Assembly: GCA_050014195.1 (NCBI GenBank)
Contig: JBEKDT010000009.1
Span: 1-64,000, forward strand
Origin: Desulfomonilia bacterium
Lineage (GTDB): Bacteria; Desulfobacterota; Desulfomonilia; UBA1062
Reading direction: 5' to 3'
DNA: 64,000 nt
Shown here: positions 3,005 to 12,455 of the stretch, in pieces
How the letters are laid out: every line of letters starts with the position of its first letter
Position numbering within the stretch: the stretch's first letter is position 1
Notes under the pieces: generated by a model
Told to the model about the DNA's origin: nothing
What the model saw: the letters and a program-made list of their open reading frames with translations, nothing else
Database searches by the model: none
Program-made: the position numbers and the translations under genes

Positions 3005-4138
3005 CTATTTTATTTCGAGGTGGTGCATCCAATTATCGCTTGATACCACCTCATACCCGGCGTCGGGATACGCTTCTTTCCAATCTTTAGGGGGTTTTGA
3101 TTTTGTCTTTGGTGAGAATTTGCATTCGAATCCGGTAAGATGACCATCAAGGTCTTCCACCAGGTCGATCTCCTTCTGGTCGTATGTCCGCCAAAAGTAA
3201 AAGCCGGTAAAACGGCGGCTATTGTCCGAACACTTGATTCGCTCCATAACGAACCAGTTCTCGAACAGCTCTCCTACATCGCTTCTGAGCGCCAGGTTGT
3301 TAAAGTTTCGTATAAGTGCATTCCTGAGACCTATATCAACAAAGTAGTATCTTGAGGTTTTGGTTACTTCTTTGCGCAGGTTTCGGCTGAAGCCTCGTAT
3401 ATTGCGAAGCACAAACATCTTTTCGAGAATGTCCAGGTATCCTTCAACGGTTTTCTGGCTTATGCCAAGCCCCTTTGCCAGTTCAGAGACTGCCACTTCT
3501 TTGCCGATTTGATGGGCAAGCAGAACGAGCAGGTCCACAACCTTCTTCGGCTTCTTTACTTGTTCGAACTGAAGAAGATCACGATAAAGATAGCTGTTCA
3601 GATACTCATAGAGATACTCTTCCTTGTCCCTGTCGCCCTCCAAGGTATGCACTCTCGGGTACATACCGAAACGGAGCATCTCCTCAAGCGCTGTTGCGGG
3701 AGAAATGGTTTGATATTTTTCAGAAACTTCCTGCCAGGACAACGGGTGCAGATGATAAGTGCGGGAACGTCCGGTTAGGGGCTCGTTAACTTTATCTGCA
3801 AGATCGAATGATGCCGAACCGGATGCAATTATTATTACTTGAAGGTTATCTATAATGAGCTTTAACGTAAGCCCGATATTCTTGATCCGCTGCGCTTCAT
3901 CTATGAAGATGATCCTGGCCCCTCCGATTACCCGCCTCAGATGCTCAAGCTCGTGCTGCGAAAGGAGTGTCTGGGTATATAGGTCATCGCCGGTAAATGA
4001 GATAGCATCCGAATCCCCTTCTATGAGATACTTCACAAGTGTTGTTTTTCCAGATTGCCTGGGGCCATAGATTATGATCACCGCCCTGGGCTTGTCGTAA
4101 GCCTCCCGTATCTGCTGGGTTATAGCTCGCTTGTACAT
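3005..4138 (-). CDS. AAA_14-type ATPase with C-terminal DUF4143 (nuclease-like) domain
   Basis: Walker A GPRQSGKTT, Walker B IFIDEAQ, YYFVDIGLRN, YFWRTYDQKEIDLV..FECK. Confidence 0.9.
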   Translation of the reverse strand: MYKRAITQQIREAYDKPRAVIIIYGPRQSGKTTLVKYLIEGDSDAISFTGDDLYTQTLLSQHELEHLRRVIGGARIIFIDEAQRIKNIGLTLKLIIDNLQVIIIASGSASFDLADKVNEPLTGRSRTYHLHPLSWQEVSEKYQTISPATALEEMLRFGMYPRVHTLEGDRDKEEYLYEYLNSYLYRDLLQFEQVKKPKKVVDLLVLLAHQIGKEVAVSELAKGLGISQKTVEGYLDILEKMFVLRNIRGFSRNLRKEVTKTSRYYFVDIGLRNALIRNFNNLALRSDVGELFENWFVMERIKCSDNSRRFTGFYFWRTYDQKEIDLVEDLDGHLTGFECKFSPKTKSKPPKDWKEAYPDAGYEVVSSDNWMHHLEIK

Positions 4139-4938: not shown

Positions 4939-5532
4939 TTAATCAAAAAGCCATTTATTCGGATCAGTGAACATTCTACGGAAGCCGCCAGGTCTTCGCC
5001 TGGAATACTCGGTTATAGTGCTGTCCCAAAGATCACCCGGAGGGCGACACGCATCTCTCCCCAAAGACAACATTATGGCGTCCGAGAGGCAAGCTTCCAG
5101 GATGGTATGCCAATGCGAAGAGTCCATAGCTTCCCCGGTTACTGCCTTACCGTTTGCCAAGAAGCTGTCCGCAACGGAGTCATCTCTTGATCTCCCTGGA
5201 AAAGAAGGAGCAGCAATATTTCCTAGGATACGCTCGAATGAGATTCGTGCGAATCCCTTTGGAGCCAAGACTCGGTCGAAGGCAGCAAGCATAACTCCAA
5301 ATCCCATCTTACTGAGAACATCAGACTTCGGCTGTGTAACATTGTACAACTGACAAGCGACTGCCCACGCCAATGCATGTGGAACCTCATAGACAATGGG
5401 TAGCCCAAGCTCCTTGGAGCGCCTGTTCAAATCATCAAATACGAGAGGCAATTTTCGATTTGCCCGGTCAACTGCTCTGTGGGCCAAAAAATACCAGAAA
5501 GGAGACTCTGATCCGTATTCAAATTTCGCCAT
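4939..5532 (-). CDS. Integron cassette gene, hypothetical protein
   Basis: 197-aa ORF with GAGG RBS, bounded by attC sites. Confidence 0.75.
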   Translation of the reverse strand: MAKFEYGSESPFWYFLAHRAVDRANRKLPLVFDDLNRRSKELGLPIVYEVPHALAWAVACQLYNVTQPKSDVLSKMGFGVMLAAFDRVLAPKGFARISFERILGNIAAPSFPGRSRDDSVADSFLANGKAVTGEAMDSSHWHTILEACLSDAIMLSLGRDACRPPGDLWDSTITEYSRRRPGGFRRMFTDPNKWLFD

Positions 5533-5644: not shown

Positions 5645-5923
5645 TTACTGACCTTTCTTGATAATTTTTTGGATGTATTTCTTTTTAAAAGAAAGCTCTT
5701 TGTTGACAAGCTCAAGTATATCCCCGCGGGTCAGCGGCATTTGGGAATCATAATCGAAAATTGTTTCGGCAATGCCAACAACCTCAGCATCTGTGACAGA
5801 TTTCACAATGACTTTTACCAAGTATCTAAATATATCTATCAATTTAAGATGGACTATGTCACCTCGATCAATTTCCTGCAAATCTTTCCATTTTGGATTC
5901 TCTTCCCAGCTATGATTTTTCAT
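5645..5923 (-). CDS. Integron cassette gene, small hypothetical protein
   Basis: 92-aa ORF exactly filling the space between two attC sites; AGGAG RBS. Confidence 0.75.
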   Translation of the reverse strand: MKNHSWEENPKWKDLQEIDRGDIVHLKLIDIFRYLVKVIVKSVTDAEVVGIAETIFDYDSQMPLTRGDILELVNKELSFKKKYIQKIIKKGQ

Positions 5924-5934
5924 CTCATCTCCTT

Positions 5935-5991: not shown

Positions 5992-6726
5992 TTATGAATA
6001 ATTTTCTCGGATCTTTGTTAATGTTCGAGATAAATCTTCAAAATGATCAATTGAAATTGTTGTTTCAAAAAAATTATGTATCCTGAATGATGCATCAATG
6101 AGGAAGCCAGCAATTGAATCAAGGGTTGGTAAGAAACTTGTTATAGGCTCATCCTTGTAATATACGACTTTAAAATCATCGCCAGATACTTCAAGATGCC
6201 TGTCTACGAGAGCACCGATATTACTATGAGTGTCGTTGCTTAAGAAATTGTATATTGAACGATATTCATCTATCATTCCAGCTCTCTTAAATCTCTGAAA
6301 TATATTTAGAGGCTTATAACCCTTGTCTATTAGCTCTTTTAATGCAGTTTCATGTACTGCAATCTGAGCATCAAGTCCTTCAAATTCTGAAAAATCTTTT
6401 AAAAAAGGATTGGGGGTATTCTTTGCTTCATTTAAAAGTTTAAGCCATTGTTCATGATAACTGGCATCCATATGATACCCATAGTTAGCATTTTCATGAA
6501 GGTTTCTCAGTTCAATATACGCTTCAAAAAATGATCTAAATATTGGAGCAATTCCTGTTCTTAACTTGCTTTCTATAAGCTTAAGAATGCAACCTGTAAA
6601 TTCTATCAGAGTTCCATATAAGCCTACTAGGTGGAGGTGTCTTGGGTGGGTCTTATCGAATGTAATATGATTTGTGTGGTTAATACATTCTTCATGTAAC
6701 CGTTTAACAAACACCAATATTTCCAT
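5992..6726 (-). CDS. Integron cassette gene, DUF5677-like helical protein
   Basis: 244 aa, AT-rich; RSFFEAYI and YRSIYNFLSNDTHSN motifs resemble DUF5677/HEPN-like proteins. Confidence 0.65.
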   Translation of the reverse strand: MEILVFVKRLHEECINHTNHITFDKTHPRHLHLVGLYGTLIEFTGCILKLIESKLRTGIAPIFRSFFEAYIELRNLHENANYGYHMDASYHEQWLKLLNEAKNTPNPFLKDFSEFEGLDAQIAVHETALKELIDKGYKPLNIFQRFKRAGMIDEYRSIYNFLSNDTHSNIGALVDRHLEVSGDDFKVVYYKDEPITSFLPTLDSIAGFLIDASFRIHNFFETTISIDHFEDLSRTLTKIRENYS

Positions 6727-6738
6727 TAGATCTCCTTA

Positions 6739-6814
6739 GCCGAACAATAATTATACGGCATTTTTGCCGTATATCTACATTATTAACCGAAGCATTTTTG
6801 CCGTATATCCAGAT
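6739..6814 (-). other. attI-like recombination site heading the cassette array
   Basis: Minus strand GTT core at 6745 preceded by palindrome TATACGGCA-N4-TGCCGTATA; 18-bp direct repeat at 6758-6775 and 6792-6809. Confidence 0.7.
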
Positions 6815-7016
6815 TTTTTGTGCATGACAATAGGATGTAAATATAACGTGCCAAAGGTCACGGTCTGATATGAAGTGTCTTGCTGTGTATGTTTCATCCC
6901 AAGACGATCGTTTTTTATGCATCTCAAAACCGAGAAGAAATCGCAGTTATCTCTGCTTTATTTAAGATGTGCTTATGGCTATATTGACCTGAACTATTGT
7001 GTAAAGGGAGGAGGGT

Positions 7017-7421: not shown

Positions 7422-8309
7422 TCACTTTTTAGTTCCCTTGCTGACCTCTGTAATTACCAGACTACGCTTCACGATCTGCTCCTGAGTCTGGAACAGGTCG
7501 CAAAACGGAATGGGGATCGTAAACACATCATCTTTTTTGAAATCCCATAAAGTATACTCTTTGGCTAACTCTCCCGGGGGGTCAGCGCTTAATGCTTCCA
7601 TCCCGATGAGTACAATATTCCTGTCTGACAATCCGTTCCTTGCCAGATCCATTTTCACGTCCTTGAAACTGATGGCACAGAACGATCTGATGTAAATAAG
7701 GATAAGGTCTCCGTATGAACGTAGTCTGGAGACATCAAGATTACTGATCCGAAAGTCTTTTGGATGCAGAATGGCCTTCTGGAAGTCGTCGTACTGGAAG
7801 TACTCCTTCACCTGGATTAAGAATGCCAAACTCGACTTACCTGCAATGGCTCTAAAACTGTACTTCCCATCGGAAATTAAGGGTGCGTCTTGCGTTATGA
7901 AGACTGCTGTGTCGACGCCAGTGTCGCTTTCTGGGTAGCCAATTAACATTCTCTTACCCCTGATCTTGAAGCCATTGTACTCAACCAAGCGATCAAGGTA
8001 CCCGGCGTAAATCATAGTGACAAACAACTCGCGAAGTCGTTTACCGTCGATGTCCGAACTACTGTTGAGGGGTATTCTGTCGCTTTGCTTGAATTCAAAT
8101 ACCGGGTTTACAGAAAGGTCCTTGGCTGTCATTGGGATTGCCATGCCAGCATAATTCCTATATCGGTAGTTGAGCGCCGCGCGAATGAGCGCGCAATACC
8201 CCTGTGCCGGCTTCTCCTGACCGACTATGAAGTTACAATACGGTTTGAACATCAGTCGGGTGAGGCTATGACTTAAGTCTTGAAGGCGCCCGTGGTATAT
8301 CCTCTCCAA
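7422..8309 (-). CDS. Hypothetical protein (possible PD-(D/E)xK-like; DTGVDTAV...IQVKE)
   Basis: 295-aa ORF; true start uncertain; family call is weak. Confidence 0.55.
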   Translation of the reverse strand: MERIYHGRLQDLSHSLTRLMFKPYCNFIVGQEKPAQGYCALIRAALNYRYRNYAGMAIPMTAKDLSVNPVFEFKQSDRIPLNSSSDIDGKRLRELFVTMIYAGYLDRLVEYNGFKIRGKRMLIGYPESDTGVDTAVFITQDAPLISDGKYSFRAIAGKSSLAFLIQVKEYFQYDDFQKAILHPKDFRISNLDVSRLRSYGDLILIYIRSFCAISFKDVKMDLARNGLSDRNIVLIGMEALSADPPGELAKEYTLWDFKKDDVFTIPIPFCDLFQTQEQIVKRSLVITEVSKGTKK

Positions 8310-9271
8310 TTGTCACCTAGTGATCATTTTTGCTGCGAATAATTGATATACTACGCTTTTCGTACATCTAATTATTCGAAGTATAATTGCAGTATATTCT
8401 GATATTATGTGTAAGGCAATATGCTGTTAAAATGCTTAGACCATAGATCTCGGTGCCATCAGCAACGCTTCACCAATATTGAAGGTTTCTTTCGAAGATC
8501 TCTACTAGAGGATCAGAATCCACAATTTAGATCTATAATATATGCTGACTACAATATGGATACAATTGCTTATATGTTACTTATACTACATTTTATATTT
8601 TAAAACACAGGTTTTTCAATCCATTGATCTTATAGGCTAAATTGAGCAACCGCGAAATCCATTATGGGACTTGGTTTAAAACGGTGTACTCGGGATAAGA
8701 ACGTATTTTCTTCACAAGAAAAACTGATGAAATCGGTGATCAAAAAAGAATACCCCCTTGACTTCAGCGATTATGGTGAATATATTTTATTCAACACACT
8801 ACTCCACATACATTTTATGTACTGTGGTTTACCGGCCTTCGAGCCGTTCACGTGACGCCTCTTCGTGATGGCGTAGCGAGATGTTGGATGAAGATCTTGT
8901 ATTTGATTCTCATTTGAGATCGGATAACAAGACCATAGGGTTTTAACCCGCCTGAATGATTTCGAATGAATACGTATGTCTACGTGATAAGACAATTGAT
9001 GAGGGTATATCATCAATTATTGTGTCTGGATTAGTCCGTATCAATATTATCATTATCACAAATGATAAGAAAACCTGTTAAATGCCGGTAACTTTCACCT
9101 GTTAACAATCCATTCCTACCAATCATCGGTTCCGTAATAGATCGATGTATCCATATATTGCCGTAGATGAAAGAAAAAGACGCTGCTCCATCATGCCGGT
9201 AAGCCACTGGCAGAGGTGGGGTCACCTGTCGCCTATGTCCGCCAGCCACGGCCATGTAGACAGGTGGGGTG

Positions 9272-9885
9272 TCGCTGGGTGCGCCGAGAGGTGCTCGCCC
9301 AGTGGCGATGAGGGCTGGGGGTAGCTCCCCTTCTACTCAATGACACTCAGCTTAGCTGCTGGAACTGGGCGACTGGGACACAGTGTCTGTGCGCCAATAG
9401 GCACAGATGCCTGGTGGTTATCAAGTGGTGAAAATCCACTGTGGGGGATTGGAGAGATCCTTTAACCCATACCTGGCGGGGGAGATCAAGGTCGAGTACG
9501 ACCTGTATATGGGTTGCCCATATGTGGAGCAGTAATGCTCCGGATCGAAGAGCTCAACCCGTAAAGGCCCATCATCATGGTTGATGGATAAAGCACCCTA
9601 ACCGTCTGCAGGCGGGTGCGACCAGGTAAGCAGATTGAGAGCGGCAAGGCCGAATCGCGATGAAATCGTATTGGGACCGAAAACGGACTCTGTCCGCAAG
9701 TAAGGGGGAGCCTCCAGGTCCTACCCCTACTACCTATACGATGGAGCTACCGCACTCTTTCTGCGAGATAACCACCTAACCAGGCAAGGACCGGACGGCT
9801 GCCTTATGGCAGAGCGAGGTCTGAGAGCGAGACTGACCAGACTCCCGGAAGGGACACCGGAACTGCAAGGCAGTGGTACCGGTGC
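9272..9885 (+). ncRNA. Circularly permuted group II ribozyme (DV-DVI / 47-nt exon / DI-DIII), ORF-less
   Basis: 34-nt DV at 9272-9305 (CGC triad, GAGA loop). DVI with bulged A9335 and end AAT at 9341. GTGCG 5' splice motif downstream at 9389, followed by ~500 nt of GNRA-capped stems and a DIII-like ACACCGGAACTGCAAGGCAGTGGTACCGGTG. Confidence 0.78.
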
Positions 9886-10053
9886 GTAGTCACAGGGTGG
9901 CTCCTGTGATTATTGCGGTCGAAAGGTCTCACCTAGCGTTTTTTTCTTTTCGGGGTGGCTCCCCGATCCCTGCCCTGACGGGTGCGGGGATCGGGGGCTC
10001 ATCCGGCCGGGAGGCCGGTGGCTCCTAATCTCGGAAGAGAGGAGGTACTACCA

Positions 10054-10698
10054 ATGGCACAGTATAGATACATTTGCAGATCATGGCAGGGATTTGTTCA
10101 ACAGGTTGTTACATACCTGAGCAATGCATATTGGCACTATTGTATTGTGCGTATCCCTGACGAGAAGATCAAAAGGGTTACGGCCATAGATGCCAAGCTG
10201 CTATCCTTGTACAATTGTTATATGAGCAAGGATCAGAGGTATAGGCGAAAACAGAAAGGCTTTGCTAACTACCACTATATTCGGTGGAATAACCTTGCTC
10301 TGATCGTGCACACCGAGGGTTCTATTCCTGACACCATAAAAGGTACTGACCGCTTTAAAGACGCAAGGGTGGAGCACCTCATAATACCCGTCAGCAACAA
10401 CCTCTCACTAAAAGCCGTGCACTCGCAGCAAGGGTGGACTGTCTGTATGGATCGAAATACATACCGTGACATCAAATATGAGCTTTACGAGTTGATAAGA
10501 TCATCATCGAGCCAATATGAAGTCATCAGGAGATATAGAAAGCTGAACGGTATCCCTGCATGGCGTGGTGTGATCGAGCAACGCAAGCATCTGCAAAGAT
10601 ATGTGATCGCACAACTCCAAAAGCAGAAGAATATACGAATGAGAAATCTCGATCTCCTCAATAATACCAAGCGCAGGCAATATCCCGTATTCATTTGA
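10054..10698 (+). CDS. Hypothetical, highly basic protein downstream of the permuted ribozyme
   Basis: GGAGG RBS at 10041 and ATG 10054; motifs SWQGFVQQVVTYL, SKDQRYRRKQKGFANYHYIRW; no RT motif. Confidence 0.75.
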   Translation: MAQYRYICRSWQGFVQQVVTYLSNAYWHYCIVRIPDEKIKRVTAIDAKLLSLYNCYMSKDQRYRRKQKGFANYHYIRWNNLALIVHTEGSIPDTIKGTDRFKDARVEHLIIPVSNNLSLKAVHSQQGWTVCMDRNTYRDIKYELYELIRSSSSQYEVIRRYRKLNGIPAWRGVIEQRKHLQRYVIAQLQKQKNIRMRNLDLLNNTKRRQYPVFI

Positions 10699-11155
10699 AC
10701 ACAGGGTATCAGCCATTCAAGCAGAAGCGACACCTCTTTTTTGGGCGGGTAAAGAGGGTCGCCATCCTGCGAACTAACAAACTGTATCAATTCATTGGAT
10801 TAGTACATTTGCATCTACACCATGGTGAATTCCCGGTTTTTCATCATGGTGATCATGGGAATCGGGAGCAAACGGCATTGAATGCCAAGTTATCAATAAC
10901 ATGAAGGATAAACCAAACAATGTCAGAATATCTTGTAAGTATATGGCAAAAACTTATGAGGTAAAGGCCCCCGGAGAGGGTCTAGGTCTTCCCTTGGGCT
11001 GCACTAAAAATATCCCCATATCAGATTATGAAGAATACAGCGTTACCTCGAAACAAGCCTGCAAGCTAATACGAGCACTTAGCAGGAAAAAATAGCTGAT
11101 GTTGACCAGATCCATCATGCAGAACTATAATACTCCTTTTGAAGGAGGAGTATGT

Positions 11156-12301
11156 ATGAAGGGATCGATAATAACCCGGCAAAGATGTTTTATTTGTAAC
11201 AGCCAGTTAATCCATGATGAAAAACGGCATGGATGTTTCTGTAAAGAACATCCGCATGTGGCAGCAACTCAATTCGTAGTTAGGTTTCCTGGAGATATTT
11301 ATCAGAATCACAAGTCATACGAATCAGCTACTCAGACGCTCAATTATCTGAGACATGAGAAGGGGACACGAGGGCAGAAGTTTAATCCTGATGATTACAA
11401 GTCGATTAGACCAAACTCAGTTATGGGTCTCAAGATTAAATACCTCGCTCGAAAAAAGGGCTTGGCATCATATGGGAAGATTGAACACTCTTTAAATCTG
11501 GCTTCAATTCATTTCGGTCCTACAAACGTCCGAGAAATCACTGGAGCTGACATCGAGGATTATCTTTACGGTATACTGCATATCTCAGAGAAGACAAGAA
11601 AGAACCATTGCGATTATATTTGTAATTTCTGGAAATGGTGTTTATCCAGGGGAGTCATTACTCTGGCAGAAATGCCCGTATTCCCCAAGATTGATTACAA
11701 ACTCGGATATCGTAAGATCACTGATTGGGGAACACAGGGTACTGTTCTTGAGAAGGTCAGGGAGATCAGTAAGCAGAATCCAAAGGTATATCTCGCCATT
11801 GATATGCTTGCTACCTATACAAAACTCAGACCCGAAGACATCAGAAGGATAACAGAGGGAAGCCTTGATGAGAATGGTTGGTTAACCATAAACAATCCCA
11901 CAAAGCTCAAGAACAAGTTTAAATACATTCACCTTCACCCTGACCACGTTGAAGCGTGGCGATTATTGCAAAGGCAATCTCCGGCCCTTCCTGATGTTCA
12001 TTTCTTCAGGGATACCAAGACAGGAAAAGTATTCGGCAAGAACCATTTGTATAAGTGGTGGAATAGAGCATGTGCTCTTATAGGGCTCAAGGGTGTTCCT
12101 CTTTACCCCGGCACAAAGCATACAACTGCAACCGAAACAGCGAAGCTCCTGGGAACAGACAAGGCTAGGGGAGCATCAGGATTAACAAACAAGGCATTTG
12201 ATAGGTACTGCCAAGTGGAGAATGATGATTGCTATGAGGTTGTGACGGCTATTAGGAAGCAGAAAGCGGATGTGATACCCCTCAAAAGGAAAAATGAATA
12301 G
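11156..12301 (+). CDS. Tyrosine recombinase/integrase, atypical, with N-terminal Cys/His cluster
   Basis: TKLRPEDI (catalytic R), LYPGTKHTTAT, FDRYCQ (catalytic Y); adjacent to tRNA att; GGAGGAG RBS. Confidence 0.82.
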   Translation: MKGSIITRQRCFICNSQLIHDEKRHGCFCKEHPHVAATQFVVRFPGDIYQNHKSYESATQTLNYLRHEKGTRGQKFNPDDYKSIRPNSVMGLKIKYLARKKGLASYGKIEHSLNLASIHFGPTNVREITGADIEDYLYGILHISEKTRKNHCDYICNFWKWCLSRGVITLAEMPVFPKIDYKLGYRKITDWGTQGTVLEKVREISKQNPKVYLAIDMLATYTKLRPEDIRRITEGSLDENGWLTINNPTKLKNKFKYIHLHPDHVEAWRLLQRQSPALPDVHFFRDTKTGKVFGKNHLYKWWNRACALIGLKGVPLYPGTKHTTATETAKLLGTDKARGASGLTNKAFDRYCQVENDDCYEVVTAIRKQKADVIPLKRKNE

Positions 12302-12380
12302 TCAATGTTCTCTACACATGTTTTACACATACTTTTTGTGTAGTAAAATCAAATTTAAATTAATAATAACAATAAGTTAA

Positions 12381-12455
12381 TGGTGGAGGTGGAGGGATTT
12401 GAACCCTCGACCCTCGCATTGCGAACGCGATGCTCTCCCGCTGAGCTACACCCCC
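12381..12455 (-). tRNA. tRNA-Ala (CGC)
   Basis: GGGGGTGTAGCTCAGCGGGAGAGCATCGCGTTCGCAATGCGAGGGTCGAGGGTTCAAATCCCTCCACCTCCACCA cloverleaf with G3:U70. Confidence 0.96.

Follow-up and report, generated by a model that had tools for sequence, protein, structure and literature searches.

The window analysed here is a stretch of 64,000 nucleotides (nt) from a Desulfomonilia bacterium (contig JBEKDT010000009.1 of assembly GCA_050014195.1, positions 1 to 64,000). Our subject is ORF214, an open reading frame (ORF) encoding 214 amino acids at positions 10054 to 10698 of the plus strand, together with a structured RNA of about 850 nt that ends about 35 nt ahead of it. On balance, we lean towards the reading that ORF214 is a degenerate intron-encoded maturase, a distant AcpG, and that it forms the final portion of a group II intron unit in circularly permuted (CP) form. 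This reading draws on family membership, conserved synteny, an RNA structure supported by covariation, and similarity of fold. An earlier sequence-only reading of the same DNA had described ORF214 as a basic protein that is not a reverse transcriptase (RT), encoded directly downstream of a permuted ribozyme as its candidate partner.

ORF214, its family and its predicted fold

ORF214 starts with the ATG at 10054 and its stop codon ends at 10698. The Shine-Dalgarno sequence AGGAGG (10041 to 10046, plus strand) lies seven bases ahead of the start and is conserved in the family, with the consensus CGGGAGGTG. The encoded protein has an isoelectric point (pI) of 10.06, with 23 Arg, 15 Lys and 17 Tyr among its 214 residues and 38 Lys plus Arg versus 16 Asp plus Glu. 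No YADD string occurs within its sequence. The description of an Arg/Lys/Tyr-rich ORF of 214 residues without YADD, followed by an integrase, is therefore confirmed, with one small ORF standing between the two genes. A phmmer search with ORF214 against 1.84 billion cluster representatives returned 501 matches at E ≤ 1e-3, 146 at ≤ 1e-10 and 20 at ≤ 1e-30, almost all of them about 200-230 amino acids long and aligned end to end. Since 501 cluster representatives match, ORF214 is a conserved real gene rather than a chance frame. In an alignment of 48 relatives (A1), the sharply conserved positions are G25/Y26, P35, K38, I45-D46, K48, R77, G89, P168, G172 and Q176. The family is sparse: of 401 genomes sampled in the window's phylum, 3 have it, the window's own genome included. 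Searches of ORF214 against Pfam, PHROGs, NCBIfam and the PDB sequences gave no significant match, and a word-indexed homologue search returned only the self-match. Its neighbours in the ESM Atlas were all unnamed, the nearest Pfam-bearing cluster being RVT_1 (35% of members) with a score of 0.78, below the level of a lead. Among viral contigs, 85 pattern matches to the family were obtained and none was confirmed.

The link to a named protein came from profile comparison. Roth et al. described in 2021 RNAs of about 900 nt with the domain order D5-D6-D1-D4, which undergo back-splicing to give a small circle and a branched RNA (PMC8637638). The same report named AcpG (TTHC007, about 260 amino acids) as a protein often encoded beside these CP group II RNAs; it reports no homology of AcpG to any known protein class and describes the role of both the ribozymes and AcpG as unknown. 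In the Thermus plasmid pTT8, the gene that fits the AcpG description lies at 6164-6943 of our locus L002; 81 relatives of it were collected and 26 of them aligned (A3). Comparison of A1 with A3 by hhalign yielded a probability of 97.4% (E 9.4e-12) over 168 columns with a common LxxLPxFxGxxxQ motif, and comparison of A1 with the single pTT8 protein yielded 84.4% (E 7e-6). Pairwise BLASTP between ORF214 and the pTT8 AcpG detected no similarity. Because the two profiles match, ORF214 is, on this sequence evidence, very probably a distant member of the AcpG family. Like the Thermus AcpG, with which it shares a homologous profile, it stands beside a CP group II ribozyme, belongs to no Pfam family and has the same predicted fold class. 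The two differ in size (214 versus about 260 amino acids) and in placement: the gene lies directly downstream on the RNA strand in all 23 RNA-bearing loci of this study, whereas in Thermus it is divergent from the RNA. The suggestion that the ribozyme and its protein belong to an undescribed element cannot be kept, as the pair has been published as a CP group II RNA together with AcpG (PMC8637638) and the ORF214 family is homologous to AcpG. The locus in the window is a further, divergent example, carried on a tRNA-Ala island. A link of AcpG to an RT or maturase-like fold or to a protein family was not found in the literature searched, which covered few subscription-journal papers.

Then, what kind of protein is AcpG? 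The AlphaFold2 model of ORF214, computed on A1, is very confident (pLDDT 97.1, pTM 0.90). Its top PDB matches in Foldseek are group II intron RTs (6ar1_D, E 3.9e-3; 8t2r_D, E 5.0e-3; probability 0.99), followed by retron RTs and viral RNA-dependent RNA polymerases. A structural search independent of Foldseek, over 48,161 representative chains, ranked the G2L4 RT (8.8), DRT9 (8.6), a diversity-generating retroelement RT (7.7), DRT2 (7.5) and Prp8 (7.1). In the structural comparison nearly all of the model is covered and one superfamily fills the top of the unbiased search; the ranking declines from intron proteins to remoter RTs, the result was replicated with a second, distant clade, and the RNA next to the gene is itself a group II ribozyme. 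The model has the palm and thumb (X/maturase) fold. It aligns only from about residue 100 of the RTs and has no fingers domain. Going by the predicted model, the fold of ORF214 is likely to be derived from an RT. Structure prediction followed by Foldseek, which had been put forward as a check on the protein, thus gave a confident model with group II intron RTs as its best matches. The label "non-RT" is right about the absent YADD, yet it is not supported by the predicted fold, which is that of the palm and thumb of group II intron RTs.

The catalytic residues of an RT are not conserved at the places where they are expected. The palm hairpin spans residues 73-86 with the consensus LRW-x-x-x-A-x-IL, and the frequency of Asp or Glu at its turn (residues 79-81) is 0.42, 0.10 and 0. 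In the segment after the first palm strand, the frequency of Asp or Glu in A1 does not exceed 0.46. The acids that are conserved among the 48 relatives, D46 (92%) and D/E99 (88%), are located away from the expected strand end and from the hairpin turn. The RVT_1 model, which contains the motif A Asp and YADD, matched neither ORF214 nor any of the 48 relatives. Comparison by hhalign with nine group II intron proteins of the same phylum (A6) gave a probability of 1.6%, which is not significant, and comparison with an RT of the same genome was not significant either. In the non-significant A6 alignment, R77-W78 is matched with the R-Y of RYADD and LNG.PAW.G with the thumb motif LN..IRGW.NY, a register that agrees with the structure. 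ORF214 is presumably not an active RT, and the positions assigned to the "lost" catalytic residues are putative.

The upstream RNA and its linkage to the gene

The region 9150-10053 folds far better than shuffled sequence (z = -10.2, 20 shuffles). Rfam 15 found no family in 8800-10200, even at E ≤ 10. When the upstream RNA was used in nhmmer, 17 fetched loci (15 distinct) proved to have homologous RNA directly 5' of an ORF214 homologue and on its strand. Their hosts are Geobacter, Thermodesulfobacteriota, Sporomusa, Paenibacillus, Bacillus, Peribacillus, Clostridium, Lactobacillales, Deferribacteraceae and a 6-kb Bacillus cereus plasmid. The 5' part of the RNA was aligned (A4) and a covariance model (R1) was built on the same part. 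In A4 the order of elements is domain 5 (D5), domain 6 (D6), a variable linker and the nearly invariant GGGCGAC..GGAAAC from 9367 onward, which is the same as the 5' splice-site motif in the published alignment of CP group II RNAs (PMC8637638, supplementary file 1). D5 and D6 precede domain 1 (D1), and the 3' and 5' splice motifs are internal and close together, as is characteristic of a CP group II RNA. Across the modelled RNA, pairing holds in 97.2% of the cells, and two-sided changes are seen at 28 of the 37 pairs; no shuffle out of 500 was as good, and slid controls reached 39-54% paired. Because D5 and D6 precede the 5' splice motif and the pairs covary, the upstream RNA is, by comparative sequence analysis, a CP group II ribozyme.

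The individual domains can be placed along the plus strand of the window. D5 occupies 9273-9304, with its CGC triad at 9273-9275, a GAGA loop at 9286-9289 and a two-nucleotide TC bulge at 9295-9296, five pairs above the triad; 9 of its 13 pairs show two-sided changes and 99% of the cells are paired. The triad is CGC in the window and AGC in 3 of the 15 distinct rows of A4. The D5 loop is a GNRA tetraloop here, whereas most of the published CP group II members available for comparison have a GUAAU-type loop. D6 (9310-9338) has 9 pairs, 7 of them with two-sided changes and all cells paired (100%), and its bulged, invariant A9335 (unpaired column 93) is the candidate branch point. The linker between the 3' and 5' splice sites (9342-9366) varies in both length and sequence in A4; it is predicted to leave as an RNA circle of about 25 nt, with the predicted 3' splice site within 9339-9343. 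The 5' splice motif GGGCGAC (9367-9373) opens the segment of D1 to domain 3 (D3) at 9367-9933, which is delimited by A4 and by the nhmmer homology across the 17 loci. The permuted ribozyme of the sequence-only reading is thus real, as the covariation demonstrates, while its choice of GUGCG as the splice site has to be given up. GUGCG (9389-9393) was considered as the 5' splice site and rejected, as it lies inside the first D1 hairpin and GGGCGAC at 9367 is preferred. On pTT8, R1 produced a full-model match at 5740-5929 of the minus strand, adjoining TTHC007, although it is weak (15.5 bits, E 0.01). Ahead of D5, two hairpins that probably correspond to P1 and P2 of the published CP group II RNAs were assigned from the minimum free energy fold and from sequence reading (9194-9267, plus strand; P1 at about 9194-9212 and P2 at about 9223-9267). 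Both carry AGCCAC in their loops (9202-9207 and 9244-9249).

The RNA is closed by a long-range helix. Its 5' strand GAAAGAAAAAGACGCTG (9169-9185, plus strand), which is the probable 5' end of the RNA, forms 17 pairs with the 3' strand TAGCGTTTTTTTCTTTT (9934-9950, plus strand), a run of T. In other loci the strands are quite different in sequence while complementarity is kept, as in L016 (TATTATTATTTGCGGGT with GTATGCAAATAATAATA, 16 pairs and one mismatch) and in L021, where the complementary strands TCTTTCTCTTTTT and AAAGAGAGAAAGG are unlike those of the window. An ungapped helix search found at least 13 pairs in 12 of 19 loci versus 36 of 342 cross-locus controls, a supportive but noisy outcome. 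An RNA duplex search over wide windows was uninformative, with z mostly about -0.2 to -3.

Homology of the RNA runs on to about 10027 in nhmmer. Between the closing helix and the gene lie three hairpins (9952-10018, plus strand; alignment A5): GGGG-TGGCT-CCCC at 9952-9964, a GC hairpin at 9961-9996 and CCGGCC-GGGA-GGCCGG at 10003-10018. The GC hairpin was correctly located by the sequence-only reading, and its arms CCCCGATCCC (9961-9970) and GGGATCGGGG (9987-9996) are exact reverse complements. According to A5, other loci also have the first and the third hairpin, with compensating changes, and the middle GC hairpin is variable; the third has a GNRA-type loop and its pairing is kept through two-sided changes. 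A scan of 8800-11200 detected no terminator-like site on the plus strand. The idea that the T-run and the GC hairpin serve as a terminator or a spacer was rejected, as no terminator-like site is present, the homology reaches the ribosome-binding site and the T-run serves as one strand of a helix. The sequence GGTGGCTCC occurs at 9896, 9954 and 10017, within 130 nt, with no other copy in the window, and it is complementary to the AGCCAC of the P1 and P2 loops. A published CP intron has P1 and P2 kissing loops with identical loop sequences (PMC13717195). The analogy suggests that the GGTGGCTCC copies may be kissing-loop or pseudoknot partners of the P1 and P2 loops. In the five contigs L028-L031 and L042 (for example L029:2778-2996), the leader with its hairpins and ribosome-binding site is kept and D5, D6 and D1-D3 are absent within the contig DNA examined; Rfam gave no match on L028, L029 and L042.

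How regularly does the ribozyme accompany the gene? A locus was counted as assessable when it was other than the window's own element and had at least about 880 nt of upstream sequence. Too little upstream DNA excluded L018, L019, L033, L035 and L038. The count also omits L025-L027 (a 100% identical ORF), L004 and L005 (taken as duplicates of L011 and L009 from the same hit scores and lengths) and L007 (a second, partial match in G060). The R1 core was found upstream and on the same strand as the ORF in 23 of 29 assessable homologous loci, namely 14 of 15 genome loci, the one plasmid (1 of 1) and 8 of 13 metagenome loci. In the positive loci the D5 region starts 760-930 nt before the start codon. 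The check that the sequence-only reading proposed, a permuted RNA within 1 kb upstream of homologues, therefore came out in favor of its view that the protein is a conserved partner of the ribozyme. The three protein-bearing genomes among the 401 sampled have one R1 match each, always adjacent to the gene. In three metagenome contigs (L025-L027), the ORF is 100% identical to that of the window and the ribozyme score is equal, which indicates that the same element is present in environmental assemblies.

A proposed rotated intron and competing explanations

In a group II intron that contains an ORF, the domains are arranged as D1-D2-D3-D4(ORF)-D5-D6. If such an intron were opened just after its ORF by rotation, the order would become [D4 3' side]-D5-D6-exon-D1-D2-D3-[D4 5' side]-ORF, which is the order found in the window. 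It is because the rotated order equals the observed one that we interpret ORF214 as a degenerate protein encoded by a rotated intron. The ORF214 gene follows the 3' strand of the covarying closing helix, and this helix would be equivalent to the D4 stem. A split-D4 architecture of CP introns has been published (PMC13717195). Whether AcpG is a shrunken, catalytically dead descendant of the intron RT, and the locus a complete group II intron, ORF included, that has been rotated about domain 4, we judge to be evenly balanced.

We infer co-transcription, the splicing chemistry at the locus, RNA binding, and the maturase and autoregulatory roles of the protein. A single transcript would start near 9166-9169 and contain P1, P2, D5, D6, the linker of about 25 nt, D1-D3, the closing helix, the three hairpins and the gene. 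In back-splicing, the D6 adenosine 9335 would attack the 5' splice site before G9367. The linker would then be freed as a tiny circle, and a branched RNA would remain with the acpG message on its 3' arm. The protein would be a remnant of the intron RT in which the palm and the thumb (the maturase part) are kept and the fingers and the catalytic aspartates are lost. It most likely binds its own RNA in the manner of maturases and would assist its folding, its back-splicing or its continued activity at the magnesium level of the cell. The hairpins next to the ribosome-binding site are a possible site of binding and autoregulation, by which the protein may damp its own translation in the way of ordinary maturases at domain IVa. 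We give an even chance to ORF214 being a maturase-like cofactor of its own RNA. For the "substitute maturase" of the sequence-only reading this means that the maturase-like role is the best-supported interpretation, whereas the different origin implied by "substitute" is at odds with the predicted fold, which points to descent from an RT.

Among known systems, the group II intron-encoded proteins (8t2r_D, 6me0_C, 7uim_D, 8h2h_D and the GsI-IIC RT 6ar1) are the nearest in structure. ORF214 is half their size and differs from them in having no fingers (RT0-2), no DNA-binding/endonuclease domain, no conserved catalytic aspartates and no significant sequence similarity. The plastid MatK and the spliceosomal Prp8 are catalytically degenerate RT-like splicing factors. 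They serve the removal of linear introns, whereas ORF214 accompanies a back-splicing, circle-forming ribozyme on bacterial mobile elements. DRT9, DRT2 and the retron RTs are active polymerases whose RNAs are templates, in contrast to ORF214, whose RNA is a ribozyme.

Several observations weigh against the rotated intron and its maturase. In the solved Gdi-1 CP intron, the D4-like pairing is made through a 5' segment between P2 and D5 (PMC13717195), whereas the 5' strand of the closing helix precedes P1 here. According to the 2021 report, acpG is missing from the vicinity of many CP group II RNAs, and the five CP RNAs tested self-process in vitro without protein (PMC8637638). The gene is divergent from the RNA in Thermus, so the position in the D4 loop is not universal. 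The ribozyme core is missing at 6 of the 29 assessable loci. The five contigs noted above (L028-L031 and L042) belong to one lineage that includes the closest relatives (50-56% identity), and they keep only the last 190 nt or so of the RNA. In L024, an IS30-like transposase (HTH_38 plus rve; L024:1619-2575) stands at the place of the ribozyme, directly upstream of the AcpG homologue, and R1 had no match across the genome of L024, which is incomplete.

The self-processing in vitro would also suit a different role, in which AcpG is an effector that uses the ribozyme product, either the tiny circle or the 2'-5' branched RNA, for defence, counter-defence or maintenance of the mobile element, in the manner of DRT or retron systems. 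The pair is sparse (3 of 401 genomes), it occurs on islands and small plasmids with HEPN/nucleotidyltransferase, WYL, MazF, TIR-like ThsB and RadC genes close by, and the structural matches include DRT9, DRT2 and retron RTs, all of which would fit such an effector. However, RTs of the defence type need their catalytic aspartates, which are not conserved in the ORF214 family, and the best structural matches are intron proteins rather than DRT or retron RTs. We regard an effector role as unlikely. The palm-like fold together with the conservation of D46 and D/E99 could instead be taken to mean that ORF214 has kept nucleotide polymerase or transferase activity at a non-canonical active site, such as one built on these two acids. 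Such an enzyme would have to work without a fingers domain, in a protein that aligns only from about residue 100 of the RTs, and with acids that are off the expected strand end and hairpin turn; this is the least probable of the explanations considered here, and we give it very little credence.

Only slightly more probable, and still highly improbable, is that ORF214 is a DNA-binding regulator or a replication initiator of the island or plasmid, and that its adjacency to the ribozyme comes from shared carriage. The very basic character of the protein would suit DNA binding, and homologues occur on plasmids of 5.5-11 kb, the inspected one of which (6 kb) has no replicon type listed. Nevertheless, the family and structure searches with ORF214 found no Rep, helix-turn-helix (HTH) or primase family or fold, and with no Rep-like family or fold in these searches the replication initiator offered by the sequence-only reading is not supported. 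Across phyla the gene keeps a fixed strand and distance with respect to the RNA, a regularity that shared carriage leaves unexplained. Moreover, other loci encode a D5-type primase-helicase of their own, and a primase-domain protein is present on pTT8.

If the rotated-intron reading with its degenerate maturase is true, CP group II elements would be complete ribozyme-maturase units rather than orphan RNAs. What the mobile elements carry as the active agent would be a ribonucleoprotein of the branched RNA and AcpG, whether or not the circle of about 25 nt is part of it. Two questions from 2021 would be answered, namely what AcpG is and where the intron protein went, and the origin of the permuted class from ordinary introns would be explained. 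If AcpG is a degenerate maturase, a specific hypothesis follows, in which the protein binds RNA, stimulates back-splicing at physiological magnesium and regulates its own synthesis through the hairpins ahead of the start codon. The published literature consulted on CP group II ribozymes includes cryo-electron microscopy structures and their engineering for the production of circular RNA.

Island and genomic context

The pair is situated on a 9.5-kb island inserted in a tRNA-Ala(CGC) gene (12381-12455, minus strand). A 35-nt direct repeat of the tRNA 3' end, at 2851-2885 and 12381-12415, marks the two limits of the island. ORF214 had been counted among the few non-cassette genes of a cassette island, but no integron features were seen (attC was not specifically searched) and the island is a tRNA-Ala element defined by its 35-nt repeats. 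The gene downstream of ORF214 encodes a tyrosine integrase of 400 amino acids (11099-12301, plus strand; phrog_1 integrase, E 1.2e-13), and an ORF of 64 amino acids (10901-11095) lies between them. Across loci, the neighbours of the ribozyme-AcpG pair vary. They include integrases in either orientation, a DUF5906/D5 primase-helicase, RadC, HTH regulators, a resolvase, MazF, HEPN/nucleotidyltransferase and WYL proteins, an IS30-like transposase and a TIR-like ThsB, and small plasmids carry the pair as well. Since the neighbours differ among loci, the pair rides on different mobile elements and the integrase in the window is island context, not a third component; the proposed core of ribozyme, ORF and integrase is not borne out.

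The other genes of the island comprise an AAA_14/DUF4143 ATPase, a DUF5677 protein and two family-less ORFs (3005-4138, 5992-6726, 4939-5532 and 7422-8309, all on the minus strand), none of which resembles an integron cassette array. Just inside the ends of the island, a 23-nt direct repeat CTACACAnGTTTTACACATAnTT (91% identical) is located at 2913-2935 and 12312-12334, two copies that could be arm-type integrase sites. An AT-rich intergenic stretch of the island contains a tandem 27-nt repeat (89% identical; 6758-6784 and 6792-6818). Outside the island, a canonical group II intron D5-D6 (Rfam RF00029, 47.8 bits) is present at 47-123, at the start of the contig, followed in 234-2688 by genes for a DUF3489 protein, a DUF2924 protein and a large serine recombinase of 575 amino acids. 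These contig-start genes look like a second mobile element that abuts the left attachment (att) repeat of the island, with its intron cut by the contig end.
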